This document shows, piece after piece, positions 21,413 to 47,412 of a DNA stretch of 47,412 nt. The notes beneath the pieces are model-generated. The model searched no databases, was not told the origin of the DNA, and worked only from the letters and a program-made list of their open reading frames with translations. The translations under genes and the position numbers were made by a program. The stretch comes from a virus. Lineage: Duplodnaviria; Caudoviricetes. The first letter of the stretch is position 1. Each line of letters begins with the position of its first letter. The DNA lies in IMG/VR virus record IMGVR_UViG_3300044847_000039, positions 1 through 47,412 of that record; one strand, given 5' to 3'.

Positions 21413-22809
21413 TGCCTCGCCAGTACAACATCCCGGCCCCGCGTCGCCAGGCACTCCGTACCGAGCTAGGCCGCGGCACGGACGAATCGCTCGGCTACTG
21501 GGCCAGGGCCGTAGGAGACACGATGCTCGTCACTGCTTCCGGAAGCACGACGCAGCGCCAACTCAACGACCGTTTCGCCGACGTGGTGAACGTCAAGGAC
21601 TACGGGGCCATGGCAGACGGCGTCACCGACGACAGGGCGGCGATTGCCGCGGCCATCGCGGTGGCGTCCGCTTCGGGCGGCCGGGTCTACTTCCCGCCCG
21701 GCACCTATCTCGTGGGCTCTGCCTTTACGATCCCGTCGAGTGTGATCCTCCAGGGCGCAGGGAAGGAGCGAACGACGCTCAAGCGTGGCTTTACCGGCGA
21801 CCTCATCACGTCTCAGGCGTCGTTCTCCGCCCTCTACGACCTCACGATCGACGGGGATACGGCGACGCGGGGCGCGGGGCGCGGAATCATCGTTGCCGCC
21901 TCGTCGTCCTCGCAGGCGCACGTCAACGTGGTGGTGAAGAACTTCGTAGAGGCGGCGCTTGAGTTCGGTACGGACGGCGGTAGCAACTTCGTCTCTCTCG
22001 CGTCGAAATACTACACTACCGGAACCGTGGGCGTGGTCGCGGCCGTGAAAGGCGGCGCGACGACCAGCGCCGTTCCCCGTTCATTCTTCGGTACAGCCTC
22101 GGATGGCTGCACCCTCTTCGACTTCGGGCAGGCGAATCATTGGTACGCGTCGGGCTTCTTCACGAACGGGCTCATCTTCTCCGACAATACGGCATTCAAC
22201 GTGGAGCTGCGCCAGTTCCGGGCCGGGAGTCTCGGGGGGACGATCACCGTCAAGGGAAACTCGCATTATTTCTCGGGCGTCTCGTCCGTTGCGTGGATCC
22301 TCGACTCGTCGGTTACCGCCTCGTTCGTGGACGTGCAGGCGCCGAATTGGGACATCACCGACAACGGCACGAACAACAGCGTCTCTCAAATCACGGGTGG
22401 CGGCGGGTGGACCCCGACCTGGACCGCGGCAACGAGCGGTACGCCCGCGGTGGGCACCGGAGGCTCGCTCACTGGTCGTTACTCACGGCGCGGCGCCTGG
22501 GTGCGGATAGAGATCGCCCTCTCTCTCGGTACTGGTTTCGCCACGGGGACCGGGTCGTGGGAGTTCTCGATTCCGGCGGCGGCACACAGTGTCAACCCGG
22601 TCCAGGTGTGCGGTACGGCCTACATGGCCAACGCCGCTGGCAAGGGGGCGGTGGGGGCAGTTCAGATCGCGACCGGCGCGTCGGTGTTACGGGTCAAGAC
22701 GGCGCTGACGGACGGCACGTTCGGCACCGTCGATGCTGGCTCGTTCGGTCCCTTCACCTGGGACGCTGGCTCGACGCTGCGGCTCTCGTGCGAGTACCGC
22801 GTGCCGTGA
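21412..22809 (+). CDS. Tailspike / depolymerase with pectate-lyase-like beta-helix
   Basis: DRFADVVNVKDYGAMADGVTDDRAAI...VYFPPGTYLV; C-terminal WTPTWT...GRYSRRG fibre domain. Confidence 0.88.
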   Translation: MPRQYNIPAPRRQALRTELGRGTDESLGYWARAVGDTMLVTASGSTTQRQLNDRFADVVNVKDYGAMADGVTDDRAAIAAAIAVASASGGRVYFPPGTYLVGSAFTIPSSVILQGAGKERTTLKRGFTGDLITSQASFSALYDLTIDGDTATRGAGRGIIVAASSSSQAHVNVVVKNFVEAALEFGTDGGSNFVSLASKYYTTGTVGVVAAVKGGATTSAVPRSFFGTASDGCTLFDFGQANHWYASGFFTNGLIFSDNTAFNVELRQFRAGSLGGTITVKGNSHYFSGVSSVAWILDSSVTASFVDVQAPNWDITDNGTNNSVSQITGGGGWTPTWTAATSGTPAVGTGGSLTGRYSRRGAWVRIEIALSLGTGFATGTGSWEFSIPAAAHSVNPVQVCGTAYMANAAGKGAVGAVQIATGASVLRVKTALTDGTFGTVDAGSFGPFTWDAGSTLRLSCEYRVP

Positions 22810-23117
22810 CCCGCCTCCCCATCCCCCGCCGCCTCCGCATCCGCGGCCGCGTGTGGAGGGTCGAGATCGTCCCCGAGCCGCCTACCATCCGCGGCGTGCC
22901 CCACGCGGGCACCTGTGACCACCGGAGGCGTCGCATCGAGGTCTGGCGCGGTCTCCCTCGCTTCGAGCGCGAGGTCACCTTCGCCCATGAGCTCGGCCAC
23001 GCACTCGTGGGACGGCCTCGGCCCGGGCAGCGCTCGGCCGAGGAGCGGGTGGTGGAGCGGCTGGCGGGGCCGCTGAGGGAGATGCTGTCACAACGGGGCG
23101 AGGCGTTAGGTGTCTAG
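22806..23117 (+). CDS. Small HExxH zinc metallopeptidase (ImmA/IrrE-like)
   Basis: GTCDHRRRRIEV...TFAHELGHAL...EERVV; GTGA overlap. Confidence 0.75.
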   Translation: MTRLPIPRRLRIRGRVWRVEIVPEPPTIRGVPHAGTCDHRRRRIEVWRGLPRFEREVTFAHELGHALVGRPRPGQRSAEERVVERLAGPLREMLSQRGEALGV

Positions 23118-23149
23118 GCCGTGTCAGTGGTGTGCACTAGACTCTGCCT

Positions 23150-23716
23150 ATGGTCAAGCGTGTGTTCACGAATATCCCCTGGAAAATACGTGGCCGGACG
23201 GTCGGTTACATACGCGGCGGCACCTACTACATCTGGCGTACGGTTGCCGGTCGTCGCGTACGGTTGACCACGAGCTGCGTGACTGAGCAGGCCGCCCGGG
23301 CGGAGTACGAACGCTTCGAACTGAGTCCCAGTACCTATGTGAACCGGCTTGGCCGGCGGGCACTGCCGCTAGGATCGGATCCAGCACGTGCGGTCCAGCT
23401 CCGAAATAACCGTCTCGCTTTACGCTACAAGCTCACGTCCACCGACTACGATGCCCTTTTGGCGCTCCAGGACGGCCGGTGTGCCATCTGCGGCGCGCGG
23501 CCGACCGAAACCAAGCGCGGAGGCCTGGAGGTGGACCATTGCCACGCTACGGGCGTTGTGCGCGGTTTACTCTGCGGGCCATGCAACCGGGGTATCGGGA
23601 ACCTTGGCGATTCACTTGACTTGCTCCGGAAAGCCGTGGCTTACATGGAGGCTGGACAGAGCAAGGGAGACACACTGATTCAGGGTGGGGGCAGACATCG
23701 AACAGTAAGGGGTTGA
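23150..23716 (+). CDS. Endonuclease VII-family nuclease with integrase-arm-like N-terminal domain
   Basis: YKLTSTDYDALLALQDGRCAIC...VDHCHATGVVRGLLCGPCNRGIG. Confidence 0.88.
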   Translation: MVKRVFTNIPWKIRGRTVGYIRGGTYYIWRTVAGRRVRLTTSCVTEQAARAEYERFELSPSTYVNRLGRRALPLGSDPARAVQLRNNRLALRYKLTSTDYDALLALQDGRCAICGARPTETKRGGLEVDHCHATGVVRGLLCGPCNRGIGNLGDSLDLLRKAVAYMEAGQSKGDTLIQGGGRHRTVRG

Positions 23717-23728
23717 TATCACGAACCT

Positions 23729-23768
23729 TGGGGGATCGTCTAACGGCAGGACGCCAGACTCTGGATCT
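23729..23768 (+). mobile_element. attP: attP core: 5' half of tRNA-Gln(CUG)
   Basis: TGGGGGA-TC-GTC TAACGGCAG GAC-G-CCAGA CTCTGGA TCT gives acceptor 5' strand, D arm and anticodon arm; no T arm; 12 bp from the int stop. Confidence 0.85.
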
Positions 23769-23780
23769 TGTGACCATTAG

Positions 23781-24878
23781 CTAACCACACGTGGGATCTC
23801 GCTTGTCCTTCGTGTGGTTGTCTCCGCTTCGCTCAGTATTCTTCTCCGATGGGCTGGCTTCCGACACACCCGGCGCACACTGGGCATCGATGAACGGTCG
23901 CATGCCCTCGGCCTCAGGGTGGACGTAGCGGGCCGACTCGTCTCCGGCCCAGCCGGCCATGCCGCGGAGGTCGTGGGCCTTCACGCCGGCACGGGCAGCC
24001 CGCGTCAGGGCGTAGTGGCGTTGGTCGCGCCAAGTAAAATATGCAAGTTTAGCTTGTACCTGAGCCGCCCGGATGGCCTTGCGTGTGTTCTTGGGGAGGA
24101 GGGTGAATACGTCCTCGCCCTGGGCGGCGAGCGCCTCGCGGGCTCTGGGCGTGAGGAGCAGCCAGCGCTCGCGCTTGTTCTTCGTGAGCCCCCGGCCGTA
24201 GGAGCTGACGACGTGGAGAAGGTTGCCGCGGATGTCCTCGGGCCGGATCCTGCGAACCTCGGAGAGGCGGAGCCCAGTGTCAAGGCTCAGGGCCGCAGCT
24301 CGGCGGATCGTTTCGTTCGGGATCGCGGCGAGGAAGCGGACTAGGTCTTGGTCCGAGACCGGCGGCGGCGTCGCTCGGACTTCGGCGAAGCGCTTGAGGC
24401 GGGAGAAGGGGTTTTCAAGGGCATACCGACGATCAGGGTCCGATGCCCAACGGAAAAACCCCGAAGCCACCGCGCACAGTCGATTGACGGTGGGAGGAGC
24501 CAAGTCCCGATGTAACCACGCTCGTCGGCAAGCGTCAGCCCGATCTCGGTCAACTTGATCGACCCCCGTTTCAGCCCCGCCCAGATCCAGGATGATACGA
24601 CTCCGGAACCAATGACCGCATGTGTAGTGCCACTTCTCTGACCAGACTGGCGGCCTGTGGGCGTCGAGGTACTGCGCGATCGCGTCGGCAAGGGCGATCC
24701 TCCTAGCTACGGGGAGTCCAGCTGATTCCTTGATCGCTTCGGCTTCTCGGGCGGAGAGGAAGAGCGTAGCCACTCGGCGGTCACTCGACTTGGTAGACTC
24801 GCGACGGAGCTCGCCACCGGCGTCGTGCCAGCGCGCCCACCAGTACGGGGACCCTTCGCGGCGGTAGAGTTTCCCCAC
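23781..24878 (-). CDS. int: Tyrosine integrase
   Basis: Arm domain LYRREGSPYWWARW...RESTK; DTGLRLSEV, TKNKRER, RDQRH, AGW, RYVH. Confidence 0.93.
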   Translation of the reverse strand: MGKLYRREGSPYWWARWHDAGGELRRESTKSSDRRVATLFLSAREAEAIKESAGLPVARRIALADAIAQYLDAHRPPVWSEKWHYTCGHWFRSRIILDLGGAETGVDQVDRDRADACRRAWLHRDLAPPTVNRLCAVASGFFRWASDPDRRYALENPFSRLKRFAEVRATPPPVSDQDLVRFLAAIPNETIRRAAALSLDTGLRLSEVRRIRPEDIRGNLLHVVSSYGRGLTKNKRERWLLLTPRAREALAAQGEDVFTLLPKNTRKAIRAAQVQAKLAYFTWRDQRHYALTRAARAGVKAHDLRGMAGWAGDESARYVHPEAEGMRPFIDAQCAPGVSEASPSEKNTERSGDNHTKDKRDPTCG

Positions 24879-25078
24879 TTGCCCTGTCCCTCGTTGCTCC
24901 GGATCCAGCCCTGCACCGTCTCAGGGTCCCAGCGCGGGAACATGCCCGGTGGGGTGGCTCGAGGGATGCGGCGTCCGAGACGGTAGGCTTGCGCCCGGGA
25001 TACCTTGAAGTGGCGGGCCAGATCAAGGATGTCCCAGAGACCGCCGCTCGGCTCGGGCTGGAGGGCCGGGGAGGGCAT
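24707..25078 (-). CDS. xis: Excisionase / AlpA-like HTH overlapping the int 5' end
   Basis: LWDILDLARHFKVSRAQAYRL...PRWDPETVQGW. Confidence 0.75.
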   Translation of the reverse strand: MPSPALQPEPSGGLWDILDLARHFKVSRAQAYRLGRRIPRATPPGMFPRWDPETVQGWIRSNEGQGKWGNSTAAKGPRTGGRAGTTPVASSVASLPSRVTAEWLRSSSPPEKPKRSRNQLDSP

Positions 25079-25081
25079 CGC

Positions 25082-25300
25082 CTACTCGCGCGTCCTCGTG
25101 GACCGCCCGTGCGCCGTCCGACGCTTCGTCCGCCTCTCATCGCGCAGTGCGTCGGTGAGCCGCTCCGCCTCCATGATGAGACAGTCCTCCCAGCGGCGGT
25201 GCATGCCACAGGGCGAGGCCGTTTCGGGGTTGGCGCGGTGCACGTCGATGATGTTCGCGATCCTGATGGCTGACGCCTGGGACTCTCTCATCCGGCTCAC
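25082..25300 (-). CDS. Hypothetical protein
   Basis: GGAGG RBS; tiles the operon. Confidence 0.55.
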   Translation of the reverse strand: MSRMRESQASAIRIANIIDVHRANPETASPCGMHRRWEDCLIMEAERLTDALRDERRTKRRTAHGRSTRTRE

Positions 25301-25422
25301 GGCCGTCCCCTCCTTCCGGTGCGCCGCGCCCTCCGGTCCGCAAGTGCGAATGGTAGGGCAACAAGGAAAAGGAGAAGGCCCACGGCGCCGAGAACCAGTA
25401 CGAATGCCCGCCCGTCTGTCAT
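25297..25422 (-). CDS. 41-aa single-TM protein
   Basis: MTDGRAFVLVLGAVGLLLFLVALPFALADRRARR...; 4-nt overlaps at both ends. Confidence 0.6.
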   Translation of the reverse strand: MTDGRAFVLVLGAVGLLLFLVALPFALADRRARRTGRRGRP

Positions 25423-25694
25423 CGCTTCCCTCCTCGCGCCGCGCGCCCTCGCCGTTCGATGGCGCGCAGCAGCGATTCTCGGGCCCCCGCTTCGACGGCT
25501 CGGGGGTCTGCCCTCTGTTTCGGGATCTCTAATCCGGCGTTCATCAGGACAGTGTGCGCCGCGTAGAGATCATCTTGGTATCGCCGGATGGCGAGCCGCA
25601 TATCATCCACGAGGCGCTCCCTGCTTCGTTGCCCGGCGCGAAATCCACGCTGATATGCGGTCGAACTGGAAACCGTCTTGCGGGTCTTCGTCAT
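25419..25694 (-). CDS. Hypothetical protein
   Basis: MTKTRK...AYQRGFRAG; ATGA overlap. Confidence 0.6.
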   Translation of the reverse strand: MTKTRKTVSSSTAYQRGFRAGQRSRERLVDDMRLAIRRYQDDLYAAHTVLMNAGLEIPKQRADPRAVEAGARESLLRAIERRGRAARGGKR

Positions 25695-25900
25695 TGCCGT
25701 CTCCGCGCATTCCGTTTCTGCGCCTTCGAGATCACGTAGGCCGTCGCCTGGGCGTGCAGCTCCGCGTCGGCCATGTGACGCGCGGCCAGGAGGTCGACGC
25801 GGGGCGCCAGCGCCGCGGCAGGTCCGAGCGCGTCCGGCACTGGCGGGCGAGGCTCCGGCGCGCAGGCCACGAGGAGGGCGAGGGCGGCGGCGCGGGTCAC
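25691..25900 (-). CDS. Small putative lipoprotein
   Basis: MTRAAALALLVAC lipobox; GTGA overlap. Confidence 0.55.
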   Translation of the reverse strand: MTRAAALALLVACAPEPRPPVPDALGPAAALAPRVDLLAARHMADAELHAQATAYVISKAQKRNARRRQ

Positions 25901-26202
25901 TTCGGAGTCCATCGGAGCCCCTTCGGCGTGAGGCGGTAGGGCGCCTGCGCACTCCGTCCCGAGAGGCGCTCCAGGCGCGAGTAGGCGCGCATCAGAGCCT
26001 TGTCGGTCGGCGCCGCAAACTCGGGTGGCATCGCTTCGTTGAGCCACACGAGATGACGCCCCACCGCCTTCGCCATGGCGAGGAGGGCGCGCAGCCGCTC
26101 ACGCGCGCGCCGGTAATTCGGAGGCGGAAGACGATCCTGCTGCGCTCCGGTCTCCCCGAACACGAGCCGCATCAGGTCGTCGTCCATCACTCCGCGCTTC
26201 AC
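25897..26202 (-). CDS. Hypothetical protein
   Basis: Tiles the operon with 4-nt overlaps. Confidence 0.55.
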   Translation of the reverse strand: MKRGVMDDDLMRLVFGETGAQQDRLPPPNYRRARERLRALLAMAKAVGRHLVWLNEAMPPEFAAPTDKALMRAYSRLERLSGRSAQAPYRLTPKGLRWTPK

Positions 26203-45574: not shown

Positions 45575-47373
45575 TGGCGAACGAAGCCACAAGCGCGCCC
45601 TACGAGAGCGTCCGGCAGCGCGTGTTGCGCTTCTGGCGCGGCATGAAGGCGGAGCGCGACTTCTATCTGCCGACCTGGCGTGACATCGCCTCGTACGTGC
45701 TGCCCCAGGCCGCCCGCTTCATGCCCGGCGACACCAGGGCGAACGACACGCGTCGCGGCCAATCGCAGATGGACCTCATCCTGAACAACGCGGCTGGGCA
45801 CTCGCTCGAGACCGGCTCGGCCGGCATGGCGTCGTCGCTCACCAATCCGGCGCGACCTTGGTTCCGCATCACGACCGCGGATCCAATGCTGGCCGAGTCC
45901 TACTCGGTGCGCGGCTACTGCTTCCAGGTCGAGCGGCTCGTTCAGTGGGTCTTTGCGCGCTCCAACATCCACGGTGTCCTCGTGTCCCTCTACCGGAACG
46001 CAATGGCGTTCGGCACGGCGCCGATGTGGATCGACGAGGACGAGAAGGAAGTCATCCGGGCCTACACGCTCCCTATCGGCCAATTCGCCCTCGCGGCCAG
46101 CTACCAAGGCCGCATCGACACGGTGGCACGCGAATTCCCGATGACCGTGCGCCAACTCCTCCAACGCTTCGGTGAAGACAACGAGGGGTTTTCGACCGGG
46201 ACGAAGCGTCTCATCGAGCGGAGGGAATGGAATCAGCAAGTTCCCGGCGGCGTGCTGCACATCGTCTGTCCAAACGAAGACCTCGATGCCGGCGCTCTCG
46301 ATGGCCGGCAGATGAAGTCCCAATCCATCTGGATGGAGCTCGGGGCTGAGGACAACGTCCCGCCGCTCAAGGTCTCCGGGTACCGCGAGTTCCCGGTCAT
46401 GACGGCGCGCTGGGAAGTGAACGGGACCGACGACGTGTACGGGACCGGGCCAGTTCATCGCGCCCTGCCCGACATCAAACAGTTGCAGCACACCGAGGAG
46501 CAGAAGTTGAACCTTCTCGACAAACTCGTCTCGCCGCCCCTGAACTACGCCGGCAGCCTGCGCGGCGACTTCCCCAGCATCATGGCTGGCGCGCTCAACG
46601 TCGTGCCCGGCGACGGAAGCGGCAAAGTCGAGCCCACCTACGCCCCCGACGTGAAGGGCTACGAACTCGCGGCCGGCCAATGCGAGGTGCTCGAACAGCG
46701 CATCCGCAAGGCCCTCCATGAAGACCTGTGGCGGATGCTGACGGACCTGTCGGCGGACAACCGGCCGGCGGGCATGACCGCGACCGAGGTGGTCGAGCGC
46801 CACGAGGAGAAGTTGATCCTCCTCGGACCAGTCGTCGACCGCTTCCACAACGAAGTGCTGTCGCCGCTCATTAAGCGGACCGTGTCGGTGCTGGCCGAGC
46901 GGCGGATGCTCCCTCCACCTCCCGACGAGCTCGTGCAGGCCCTCATGCGCGGTGAGGACGTGCGCATTGAGTACATTTCCACCCTCGCTCAGGCGCAACG
47001 CATCCTCGGTATCGGTAGTCTCGAGCGCTTCGGCTCCATCGTCCGCCAGATCGCCGAGACCGATCCGACCGGCGCGGTCATGGACAAGGTCGACCGCGAC
47101 GAGGTCATCGACCAGGCCGCGGACATGCTCGGCATTCCGCCCAACATCGTCCGTGCCGACGATGCCGTAGCCGAGATGCGGATCTCTCGCGCTCGCAACG
47201 CCGCGGCTCAGCAGCAGATGCAATGGACCACTGCGGCCGCTCAGCAAGCGGCGGCGCTCGCCAAGACGCCAATGTCCGGAGATACGGCGCTGTCTCGGCT
47301 CCTGGCCGCGCAAGGCCCGAGTGCCACGAGCGCGACCCTGCCGCCGCAGACGCTCGGTGGAGGCGGCCCGTGA
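45574..47373 (+). CDS. Portal protein (head-to-tail connector, Bbp21/T7 gp8-like)
   Basis: LTNPARPWF, AFGTA, RW..DVYGTGP..ALPDIKQLQ, MTATEVVERHEEKLILLGPV, YISTLAQAQR. Confidence 0.96.
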   Translation: MANEATSAPYESVRQRVLRFWRGMKAERDFYLPTWRDIASYVLPQAARFMPGDTRANDTRRGQSQMDLILNNAAGHSLETGSAGMASSLTNPARPWFRITTADPMLAESYSVRGYCFQVERLVQWVFARSNIHGVLVSLYRNAMAFGTAPMWIDEDEKEVIRAYTLPIGQFALAASYQGRIDTVAREFPMTVRQLLQRFGEDNEGFSTGTKRLIERREWNQQVPGGVLHIVCPNEDLDAGALDGRQMKSQSIWMELGAEDNVPPLKVSGYREFPVMTARWEVNGTDDVYGTGPVHRALPDIKQLQHTEEQKLNLLDKLVSPPLNYAGSLRGDFPSIMAGALNVVPGDGSGKVEPTYAPDVKGYELAAGQCEVLEQRIRKALHEDLWRMLTDLSADNRPAGMTATEVVERHEEKLILLGPVVDRFHNEVLSPLIKRTVSVLAERRMLPPPPDELVQALMRGEDVRIEYISTLAQAQRILGIGSLERFGSIVRQIAETDPTGAVMDKVDRDEVIDQAADMLGIPPNIVRADDAVAEMRISRARNAAAQQQMQWTTAAAQQAAALAKTPMSGDTALSRLLAAQGPSATSATLPPQTLGGGGP

Positions 47374-47391
47374 ACGGCTACGCGCCCACCA
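47266..47391 (+). repeat. Terminal direct repeat, copy 2
   Basis: Identical to 1-126; the following 21 nt diverge. Confidence 0.95.
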
Positions 47392-47412
47392 ATTGCGTCG
47401 GTATGTGCCAGC

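Follow-up and report, generated by a model that had tools for sequence, protein, structure and literature searches.

A half gene for a transfer RNA (tRNA) that starts at the first nucleotide of the tRNA and breaks off just past the anticodon loop, lying beside a phage integrase gene, raises two questions: whether integration would restore the front of a host tRNA gene, and what would transcribe the gene so rebuilt. We address both for the viral record IMGVR_UViG_3300044847_000039 of IMG/VR, the whole of which (47,412 bases, 65% G+C) is called the window below. In it, a plus-strand gene, 12 nucleotides (nt), the tRNA half, a further 12 nt and the minus-strand integrase gene (int) follow one another, as listed here together with the predicted crossover core.

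23150 to 23716, plus strand: open reading frame (ORF) of 188 amino acids with an integrase arm-binding-like N terminus and endonuclease VII (PF02945, E 2.6e-25); it stops 12 nt before the tRNA half.
23729 to 23768, plus strand: the first 40 nt (nt 1-40) of host tRNA-Gln(CTG), forming the stretch of identity in the predicted attachment site; exact match to 34 intact genes.
23754 to 23770, plus strand: predicted crossover core, the 7-nt anticodon loop between palindromic anticodon stem strands (Rfam alignment; comparison of the arm with its reverse complement).
23781 to 24878, minus strand: int, a tyrosine integrase of 365 amino acids convergent on the attachment core (PF00589, E 1.5e-7; phrog_1, E 1.9e-37).

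Our preferred reading, which we hold to be probable, is that this locus is the phage attachment site (attP) of a temperate phage with an Anaeromyxobacter-like host, that it carries the exact first 40 bases of tRNA-Gln(CTG) and would undergo crossover of reverse polarity in the anticodon loop, and that the tRNA would be rebuilt at one prophage junction (attR) under phage-side transcription, likely by read-through from the endonuclease gene. An earlier note, made from the letters of this DNA alone, had taken 23729-23768 for the 5' half of tRNA-Gln(CUG), ending just past the anticodon loop and lacking a T arm, with int convergent on it at 12 nt, and had proposed a comparison with bacterial tRNAs. 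All of this is borne out. The segment has 34 matches in GTDB genomes, all of them (34 of 34) exact over nt 1-40 in a complete tRNA-Gln(ctg) gene, and an exact 40-nt match is far above chance level. By title, the matching stretches are mostly Anaeromyxobacter/Anaeromyxobacteraceae (16) and other Myxococcota: 9 belong to uncultured delta proteobacteria, 4 to Myxococcales, 1 each to Myxococcaceae, Polyangiaceae and Proteobacteria, and 2 to WOR-3. Judged from these sequences, the host is probably Anaeromyxobacter-like, within the Myxococcota. Identity between phage and host ends at nt 40 at all 34 loci and extends upstream of the tRNA by merely 0-6 nt. The anticodon loop occupies 23759-23765, with CTG at 23761-23763, and the break falls 3 nt past the loop, within the 3' strand of the stem. 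The tRNA's 3' half is absent from the phage, where exact matches to nt 41-74 reach 10 nt at most, and ARAGORN finds no tRNA gene in the window. The fold that had been described for the segment stands only in part: Rfam aligns the acceptor 5' strand, the D arm and the anticodon arm, but at 16.4 bits, below the cut-off of 29, and the 40-mer alone does not fold into cloverleaf arms (z 0.08). Because the 40-mer lacks a cloverleaf fold of its own, it is identity, not folding, that proves its tRNA origin.

When the junctions with one host locus were built in silico, with the exchange placed within the common 40-mer, ARAGORN called a tRNA-Gln at attR and none at the other junction (attL) or at attP. 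Integration of this phage at the host tRNA-Gln would be a 5' restoration, and 23729-23768 most likely represents an attP of the 5'-restoring type, a class known to be in the minority. The integrase would cross over within the anticodon loop in reverse polarity, attL would keep a dead 5' fragment of the tRNA, and attR would regain a whole tRNA-Gln under phage-side transcription. In the right half-site of the core, one of the five bases is not that of the host.

What might supply this transcription is suggested by the host loci. In 28 of the 34, the tRNA-Gln begins 0-15 nt past the stop of the same small coding sequence; of 44 loci, 38 have a promoter-like site 351-423 nt upstream of the tRNA-Gln, and none has one within 80 nt. 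The displaced host tRNA promoter of the earlier note therefore has no counterpart beside the gene. At L033 (3046-3426, minus strand) and 27 other host loci, the tRNA-Gln(CTG) forms the tail of a transcript behind a conserved gene for a small, possibly secreted, protein, and the host tRNA-Glu, 60 nt downstream of the tRNA-Gln, has its own promoter-like site. The phage layout mirrors that of the host, with an ORF, 12 nt and then the tRNA half, and no intrinsic (U-tailed) terminator was found between the endonuclease ORF and the tRNA half. Because the host tRNA trails a gene and the phage copies that layout, read-through is likelier than a dedicated promoter; the restored tRNA would most likely be supplied by the transcript of the endonuclease ORF, followed by normal 5' processing, and not by a promoter touching the tRNA. 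This is the weakest step of the model. The notion that a lysogen would express tRNA-Gln from a phage promoter thus survives insofar as the in silico attR needs phage-side transcription, but the specific promoter put forward for it is unsupported (see below).

Promoter candidates were scored on a matrix built from 33 promoter-like sites of host tRNA-Glu. Before this neighbouring tRNA, 33 of 34 distinct spacers have a TTGAC-type -35, a spacer of 17-18 nt and a -10 starting with TA, and in 32 of the 33 sites the end of the -10 is 12-14 nt away from the tRNA; the loci are related and hence not independent of one another. The candidate for the endonuclease ORF itself is the following.

23115 to 23143, plus strand: weak leaderless promoter candidate for the endonuclease ORF, with a -10-like TAGACT 6 nt before the ATG (score -5.4).

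The candidate ranks in the top 1.4% of scored positions. L035, the locus of a homologous gene, likewise has a -10-like hexamer 6 nt ahead of its ATG, with an upstream motif resembling that of the window, which suggests that the endonuclease ORF has a leaderless start. The top host-like promoter match on the plus strand of the phage (21959-21986, score 15.0) lies inside the tail-spike gene and points toward the attachment site; it may be due to chance.

The 188-amino-acid protein carries its endonuclease VII in the C-terminal part. Its residues 1-70 may resemble an integrase arm-binding domain, a lead that comes from language-model (Atlas) features at 0.91 to PF02920 clusters and from predicted-structure matches to integrase clusters, all under the bar for naming. 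This N terminus matches a stop-interrupted stretch of Anaeromyxobacter oryzae at 37%; no relationship to the phage's own integrase family was detectable (probability 7%), and no longer homolog was found. A homolog 54% identical to the protein (L035 95-622, minus strand, in record G001) points at nt 1-45 of the same tRNA-Gln. Apart from this, an endolysin is all that G001 has in common with the window, and no integrase hit came from the 37 kb of this record (80% complete). At the start of G001 (L035 1-80), a scrambled 3' part comes after nt 1-45, in which the acceptor-pairing heptamer is retained and a T arm is lacking, possibly an intermediate between 3' and 5' restoration. A further homolog of the fusion, P0177, is 73% identical over the N terminus. 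None of 80 endonuclease VII loci has a tRNA-Gln half. Overall, the 188-amino-acid gene looks like a module linked to the attachment site and might perhaps be an older integrase gene into which a homing nuclease moved.

Restoration of the 5' end at tRNA-Gln is not confined to this phage. Among 64 IMG/VR loci with the tRNA-Gln 5' motif, 53 hold whole tRNAs and 11 do not, and four of the latter have an integrase in the locus (L185, L187, L195 and L232). One IMG/VR record of 56,037 bases has the 5' fragment at one end (L176) and, at the opposite end (L188), an integrase gene with a whole tRNA behind it, and so shows both ends of a 5'-restoring tRNA-Gln prophage. The integrases of these elements are unrelated to that of the window, and because unrelated elements with integrases carry such fragments, 5' restoration at tRNA-Gln recurs. 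The survey also turned up another unrelated element with a tRNA-Gln 5' fragment (L218); a 3' fragment of the same tRNA-Gln type in a 39.8-kb viral record (L149 1863-1905), with no integrase hit within the fetched flank; and two viral 5' parts of tRNA-Gln that extend no further than the D arm (L172 and L217), in the first of which a T-arm-like 3' part resumes ~90 nt later, suggesting an interrupted tRNA gene.

The integrase itself is intact, with R204, K233, R287 and Y318 invariant across 24 homologs; at residue 284, Arg stands in place of the first HxxR His in 7 of 24 family members, that of the window included. Its close family comprises 26 proteins (P0001-P0026) that are 47-78% identical to it. 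Among 13 metagenome loci found for int, one holds a close relative, L046 (65% identical), in whose DNA int is followed, 25 nt past its stop, by the core in sense up to the end of the contig. The core 23754-23770 is the sole part common to this stretch and the window, and the direction of the loop in the window is opposite to that in L046, between nearly identical half-sites. When 175 protein C termini were checked, five shared 5-mers with translations of tRNA-Gln, four of them members of the 26-member family; the fifth, P0165, was dropped as a low-complexity match from outside the family. As peptides, the C termini of P0010 and P0011 read through the tRNA-Gln 3' half in sense and could be attR junctions, that of P0013 ends in the antisense 3' end of the tRNA-Gln, and that of P0026 runs in sense through the 5' half before leaving the tRNA. 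Relative to int, the window and P0013 thus have the loop in antisense; L046, P0010, P0011 and P0026 have it in sense.

Integrases that are 53-65% identical apparently act on one and the same palindromic anticodon arm, in either polarity and with either half. Because the anticodon stem is palindromic, the same integrase half-sites could serve either loop polarity, with the 7-bp overlap alone setting the orientation; this would explain why relatives meet the loop reversed and, by their C-terminal peptides, carry either half. A bolder account, which we regard as tentative and rather doubtful as a whole, holds that one integrase family flipped its core repeatedly at one tRNA-Gln loop, yielding all four combinations of polarity and half (the window; P0013; P0010/P0011; P0026), and that the phage solved the promoter problem by copying the gene-plus-tRNA operon of the host with an attachment-linked arm-domain/endonuclease VII gene, making the CAG-reading tRNA hostage to a prophage transcript. 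In the integrase tree, geometry is known for 6 of 27 rows, too few to count flips. If the polarity flips are true, the family would offer a natural series for studying how the orientation of integrase sites evolves. We found no paper on this phage family or on polarity switching within one family, most subscription journals lying outside the coverage of the search. Close relatives of int with DNA context were not found in IMG/VR, where the 10 loci examined are only 23-28% identical, and GenBank phage integrases are at most 26-32% identical. The phage group as a whole lacks a close relative in GenBank, the best hit there being 26% identical.

The earlier note had offered a different account of regulation, in which a dedicated extended -10 promoter at 23714-23722 drives the tRNA and host transcription into attL silences int by antisense RNA, stabilising the prophage. 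We think this improbable on the basis of the features listed below.

23714 to 23722, plus strand: the proposed extended -10 candidate, TGATATCAC, ending 6 nt before the tRNA fragment; not supported as a promoter.
23706 to 23718, minus strand: exact consensus site for integration host factor (IHF), the sole match in the window; likely a bending site of attP (predicted).
23782 to 23820, plus strand: stem-loop over the last int codons, 13 nt after the tRNA fragment (inverted repeat I7; -21.9 kcal/mol, z -4.5).

The string does exist 6 nt upstream of the fragment, as does the convergent geometry, and host -10 boxes often lack the final T, TATCAG being among them. However, the candidate has no -35 and scores -13.6 to -17.1 on the host matrix against 12.9-22.2 for the host sites (self-scores of related loci). 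The host-type housekeeping arrangement, with a -35 located 16-18 nt upstream of a -10 that ends 12-14 nt before nt 1, is not seen at 23714-23722, and the 6-nt spacing would leave no leader before a tRNA that starts with U. A combined sigma-70 and terminator scan of 22800-25300 gave no sites, and an extended -10 pattern scan of the window gave three matches, none near the attachment site. Further, the TGA of the candidate is the stop codon of the upstream ORF, and the candidate overlaps the IHF consensus site, which lies ~40 nt from the anticodon loop. This consensus has one exact match in 47 kb against 0.14 expected, with at least one match in 13 of 100 shuffles. Of five unrelated integrase-flanked 5' halves in viral records, four have an IHF-like motif in the same orientation 17-38 nt upstream (one exact, three with one mismatch); the motif is absent upstream of the L185 5' half. 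The AT-rich patch upstream of the fragment is better read as an attP bending site, to which IHF may bind at 23706-23718, than as a promoter.

The antisense part of that account fares similarly. Once integrated, the host site 351-423 nt upstream would point into int, the plus-strand scan found no U-tailed terminator, and L195 has the same geometry with an unrelated integrase; a host transcript would meet the 3' end of int 12 nt past the fragment, and some antisense RNA is possible. On the other hand, L195 is the only convergent case among the five unrelated 5' halves flanked by an integrase; in the remaining four, int is located upstream and runs in sense, an arrangement that yields no antisense RNA, and a convergent int is also found in ordinary 3'-type elements (L186, L194 and P0013). 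The transcript of the endonuclease gene in the free phage would also be antisense to int, so that the overlap is not specific to integration. In addition, the stem-loop at 23782-23820 has no U tract and could be a terminator, a pause or a processing site, and could stop read-through; its z score against shuffles is for a segment picked after the hairpin had been seen, and 26% of 237 sampled 61-mers of this GC-rich genome fold equally well. No paper on tRNA-derived antisense control of int was found, with the same coverage of journals as above. In conclusion, neither the dedicated promoter nor the antisense silencing found support here, although this regulation would have been what was surprising about the locus.

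It might also be argued that the locus is a product of assembly, in which the phage has an entire tRNA, or two copies of the 5' half, or in which a 41-nt repeat has served to join two elements. One public run contains the stretch and is possibly its source, so that the evidence from its reads is not independent of the window. Its unitigs 23043-23757 (depth 17) and 23739-24857 (depth 18.6) both break at the tRNA repeat, stopping inside it from either side with none of the listed unitigs bridging it; 15 loose ends and 22 pieces fell outside the listing. In the same run, seven contigs go from 23768 into a tRNA 3' half, which argues that the matching host tRNA is present in the sample, and three enter at 23729 from other sequence. 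We nevertheless regard a misassembly as improbable and a collapsed repeat as a minor rival: depth is similar on the two sides and over 22000-26000, the contig closes circularly, and both flanking genes are linked to the same tRNA site elsewhere (L046 for int, L035 for the endonuclease gene). Moreover, a free circle and a prophage yield the same geometry, with the endonuclease side entering at nt 1 and the int side exiting at nt 40, and a lysogen read as attL plus attR would show this geometry too.

Least likely, in our judgement, is that only the loop core is used, the 5' half being a recent capture from imprecise excision and expression of the restored gene dispensable in a host relying on another tRNA-Gln: such a reading would fit the lack of a clear phage promoter, relatives such as L046 that show just the core on the int side, and the scrambled 3' part after nt 45 in L035, but the copy begins at nt 1, is perfect over 40 nt and brings at most 6 nt of host leader, only one copy of the tRNA-Gln is present in 36 of the 38 matching Anaeromyxobacteraceae genomes, and in four host genes nearby all Gln codons, 16 of 16, are CAG (a small sample). 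A lysogen formed by the 5' restoration that we prefer would place an apparently single-copy host tRNA under phage control.

Several observations weigh against our preferred reading. The two WOR-3 genomes among the 34 exact matches make the host assignment not unique. The geometry of four of the five integrase relatives comes from peptides, not DNA, and P0026 is a fragment on a long branch of the tree. Sets of 363 and 401 genomes hold no integrase closer than about 30-36% identity; each set has three distant integrases, none with a tRNA-Gln piece in the loci examined. There is no convincing phage promoter, as the leaderless candidate scores below every host site, and a tRNA driven from the transcript of a nuclease gene in the lysogen is awkward. 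Among the contigs listed from the run, none bridges the repeat, and attP, attL plus attR, and a collapsed repeat look alike. Finally, the search for integrated copies that the earlier note had proposed gave a window-type attL in none of 363 Myxococcales genomes and in none of 244 fetched loci. G066 and G067, with several core matches each, proved to hold whole tRNAs rather than fragments, L150 was set aside as a core match without context, and L144, L145 and L147 were set aside as tRNAs of other organisms.

The surroundings of the attachment site are those of a circular temperate phage. The first 147 bases of the record are repeated at its end, and given this terminal repeat, the window reads as a circle. 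The two copies (1-147 and 47266-47412) differ over the last ~20 bases, which may reflect strain variation at circle closure. A PHROGs scan of 19 window proteins identified terminase, major head protein, head-tail adaptor, tail proteins, endolysins, a Gam-like protein and the integrase, and the predicted attachment site is located where the plus-strand structural genes meet the minus-strand genes. Two further features lie on the int side.

23864 to 23880, minus strand: tentative arm-type direct repeat of the integrase (motif listing and comparison with L046).
24707 to 25078, minus strand: small DNA-binding ORF overlapping the start of int (phrog_597, E 4.4e-6; weak HTH_28 match, E 0.04).

From its position, the latter ORF is possibly an excisionase. 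A second motif, GGAGACA, is inverted on the two arms of the site (23666 and 23825) and occurs nine times in the genome.

How does this locus compare with known systems? A reverse-orientation tRNA-gene element was reportedly described by Zhao and Williams in 2002 (J Bacteriol 184:859). In the portions of PMC6563490 and PMC8371274 available to us, 5'-restoring integration is called infrequent, with Zhao and Williams 2002 or Williams 2002 cited. Consistent with what the earlier note had said of the rarity of 5'-restoring elements, Table 1 of the Islander paper counts 3919 islands in total, of which 159 have a 5' fragment and 3760 a 3' fragment (PMC4383910). Like this class, the window has a tyrosine integrase beside a tRNA 5' fragment that starts at nt 1 of the tRNA, the 3' half being absent from the phage, and the element would restore the front of the gene. 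Unlike it, the window is a whole tailed phage whose host is probably one of the Myxococcota, and it was observed in circular rather than integrated form; its int is convergent on the 3' side of the fragment, and it has close relatives of opposite polarity at the same loop.

The window resembles pTN3-like integrases of Thermococcales in having a tRNA 5' half at its predicted attachment site. There, according to the available text of PMC8371274, the attB is the tRNA's 5' half, int is split on integration and the restored tRNA is expressed from the integrase promoter, whereas in the window the attachment site is outside int, which stays whole, ends 12 nt from the fragment and is aimed at the tRNA from the far side, unable to drive it. 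With mycobacteriophages, the window would share the dependence of the lysogen on the phage for the tRNA that is hit by integration; as far as the accessible portion of PMC10865867 describes it, tRNA-dependent lysogeny combines ~10 bp shared with attB and a whole spare tRNA, whereas the window has a 40-bp identity and no whole tRNA.

There is also a likeness to ordinary 3'-restoring sites in the anticodon loop, the site (A) of 2083 islands in the portion of the Islander paper considered (PMC4383910), where a loop with its palindromic stem forms the core of ordinary tRNA attachment sites, as stated in the available part of PMC8371274. Like these, the window has a 7-nt loop in the inverted repeat of the stem, whose half-sites its fragment carries, an adjoining tyrosine integrase and a candidate IHF-like site, and its relatives P0010, P0011 and P0013 appear to be of the ordinary 3'-restoring kind. 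The window differs from them in carrying the 5' half, which would cut the host promoter off from the restored gene. Overall, the site alone is a further example of a rare but described mode of integration, about 4% of islands by the Islander table (PMC4383910), and the apparent switch of polarity within one integrase family is the new element here and the most interesting lead.

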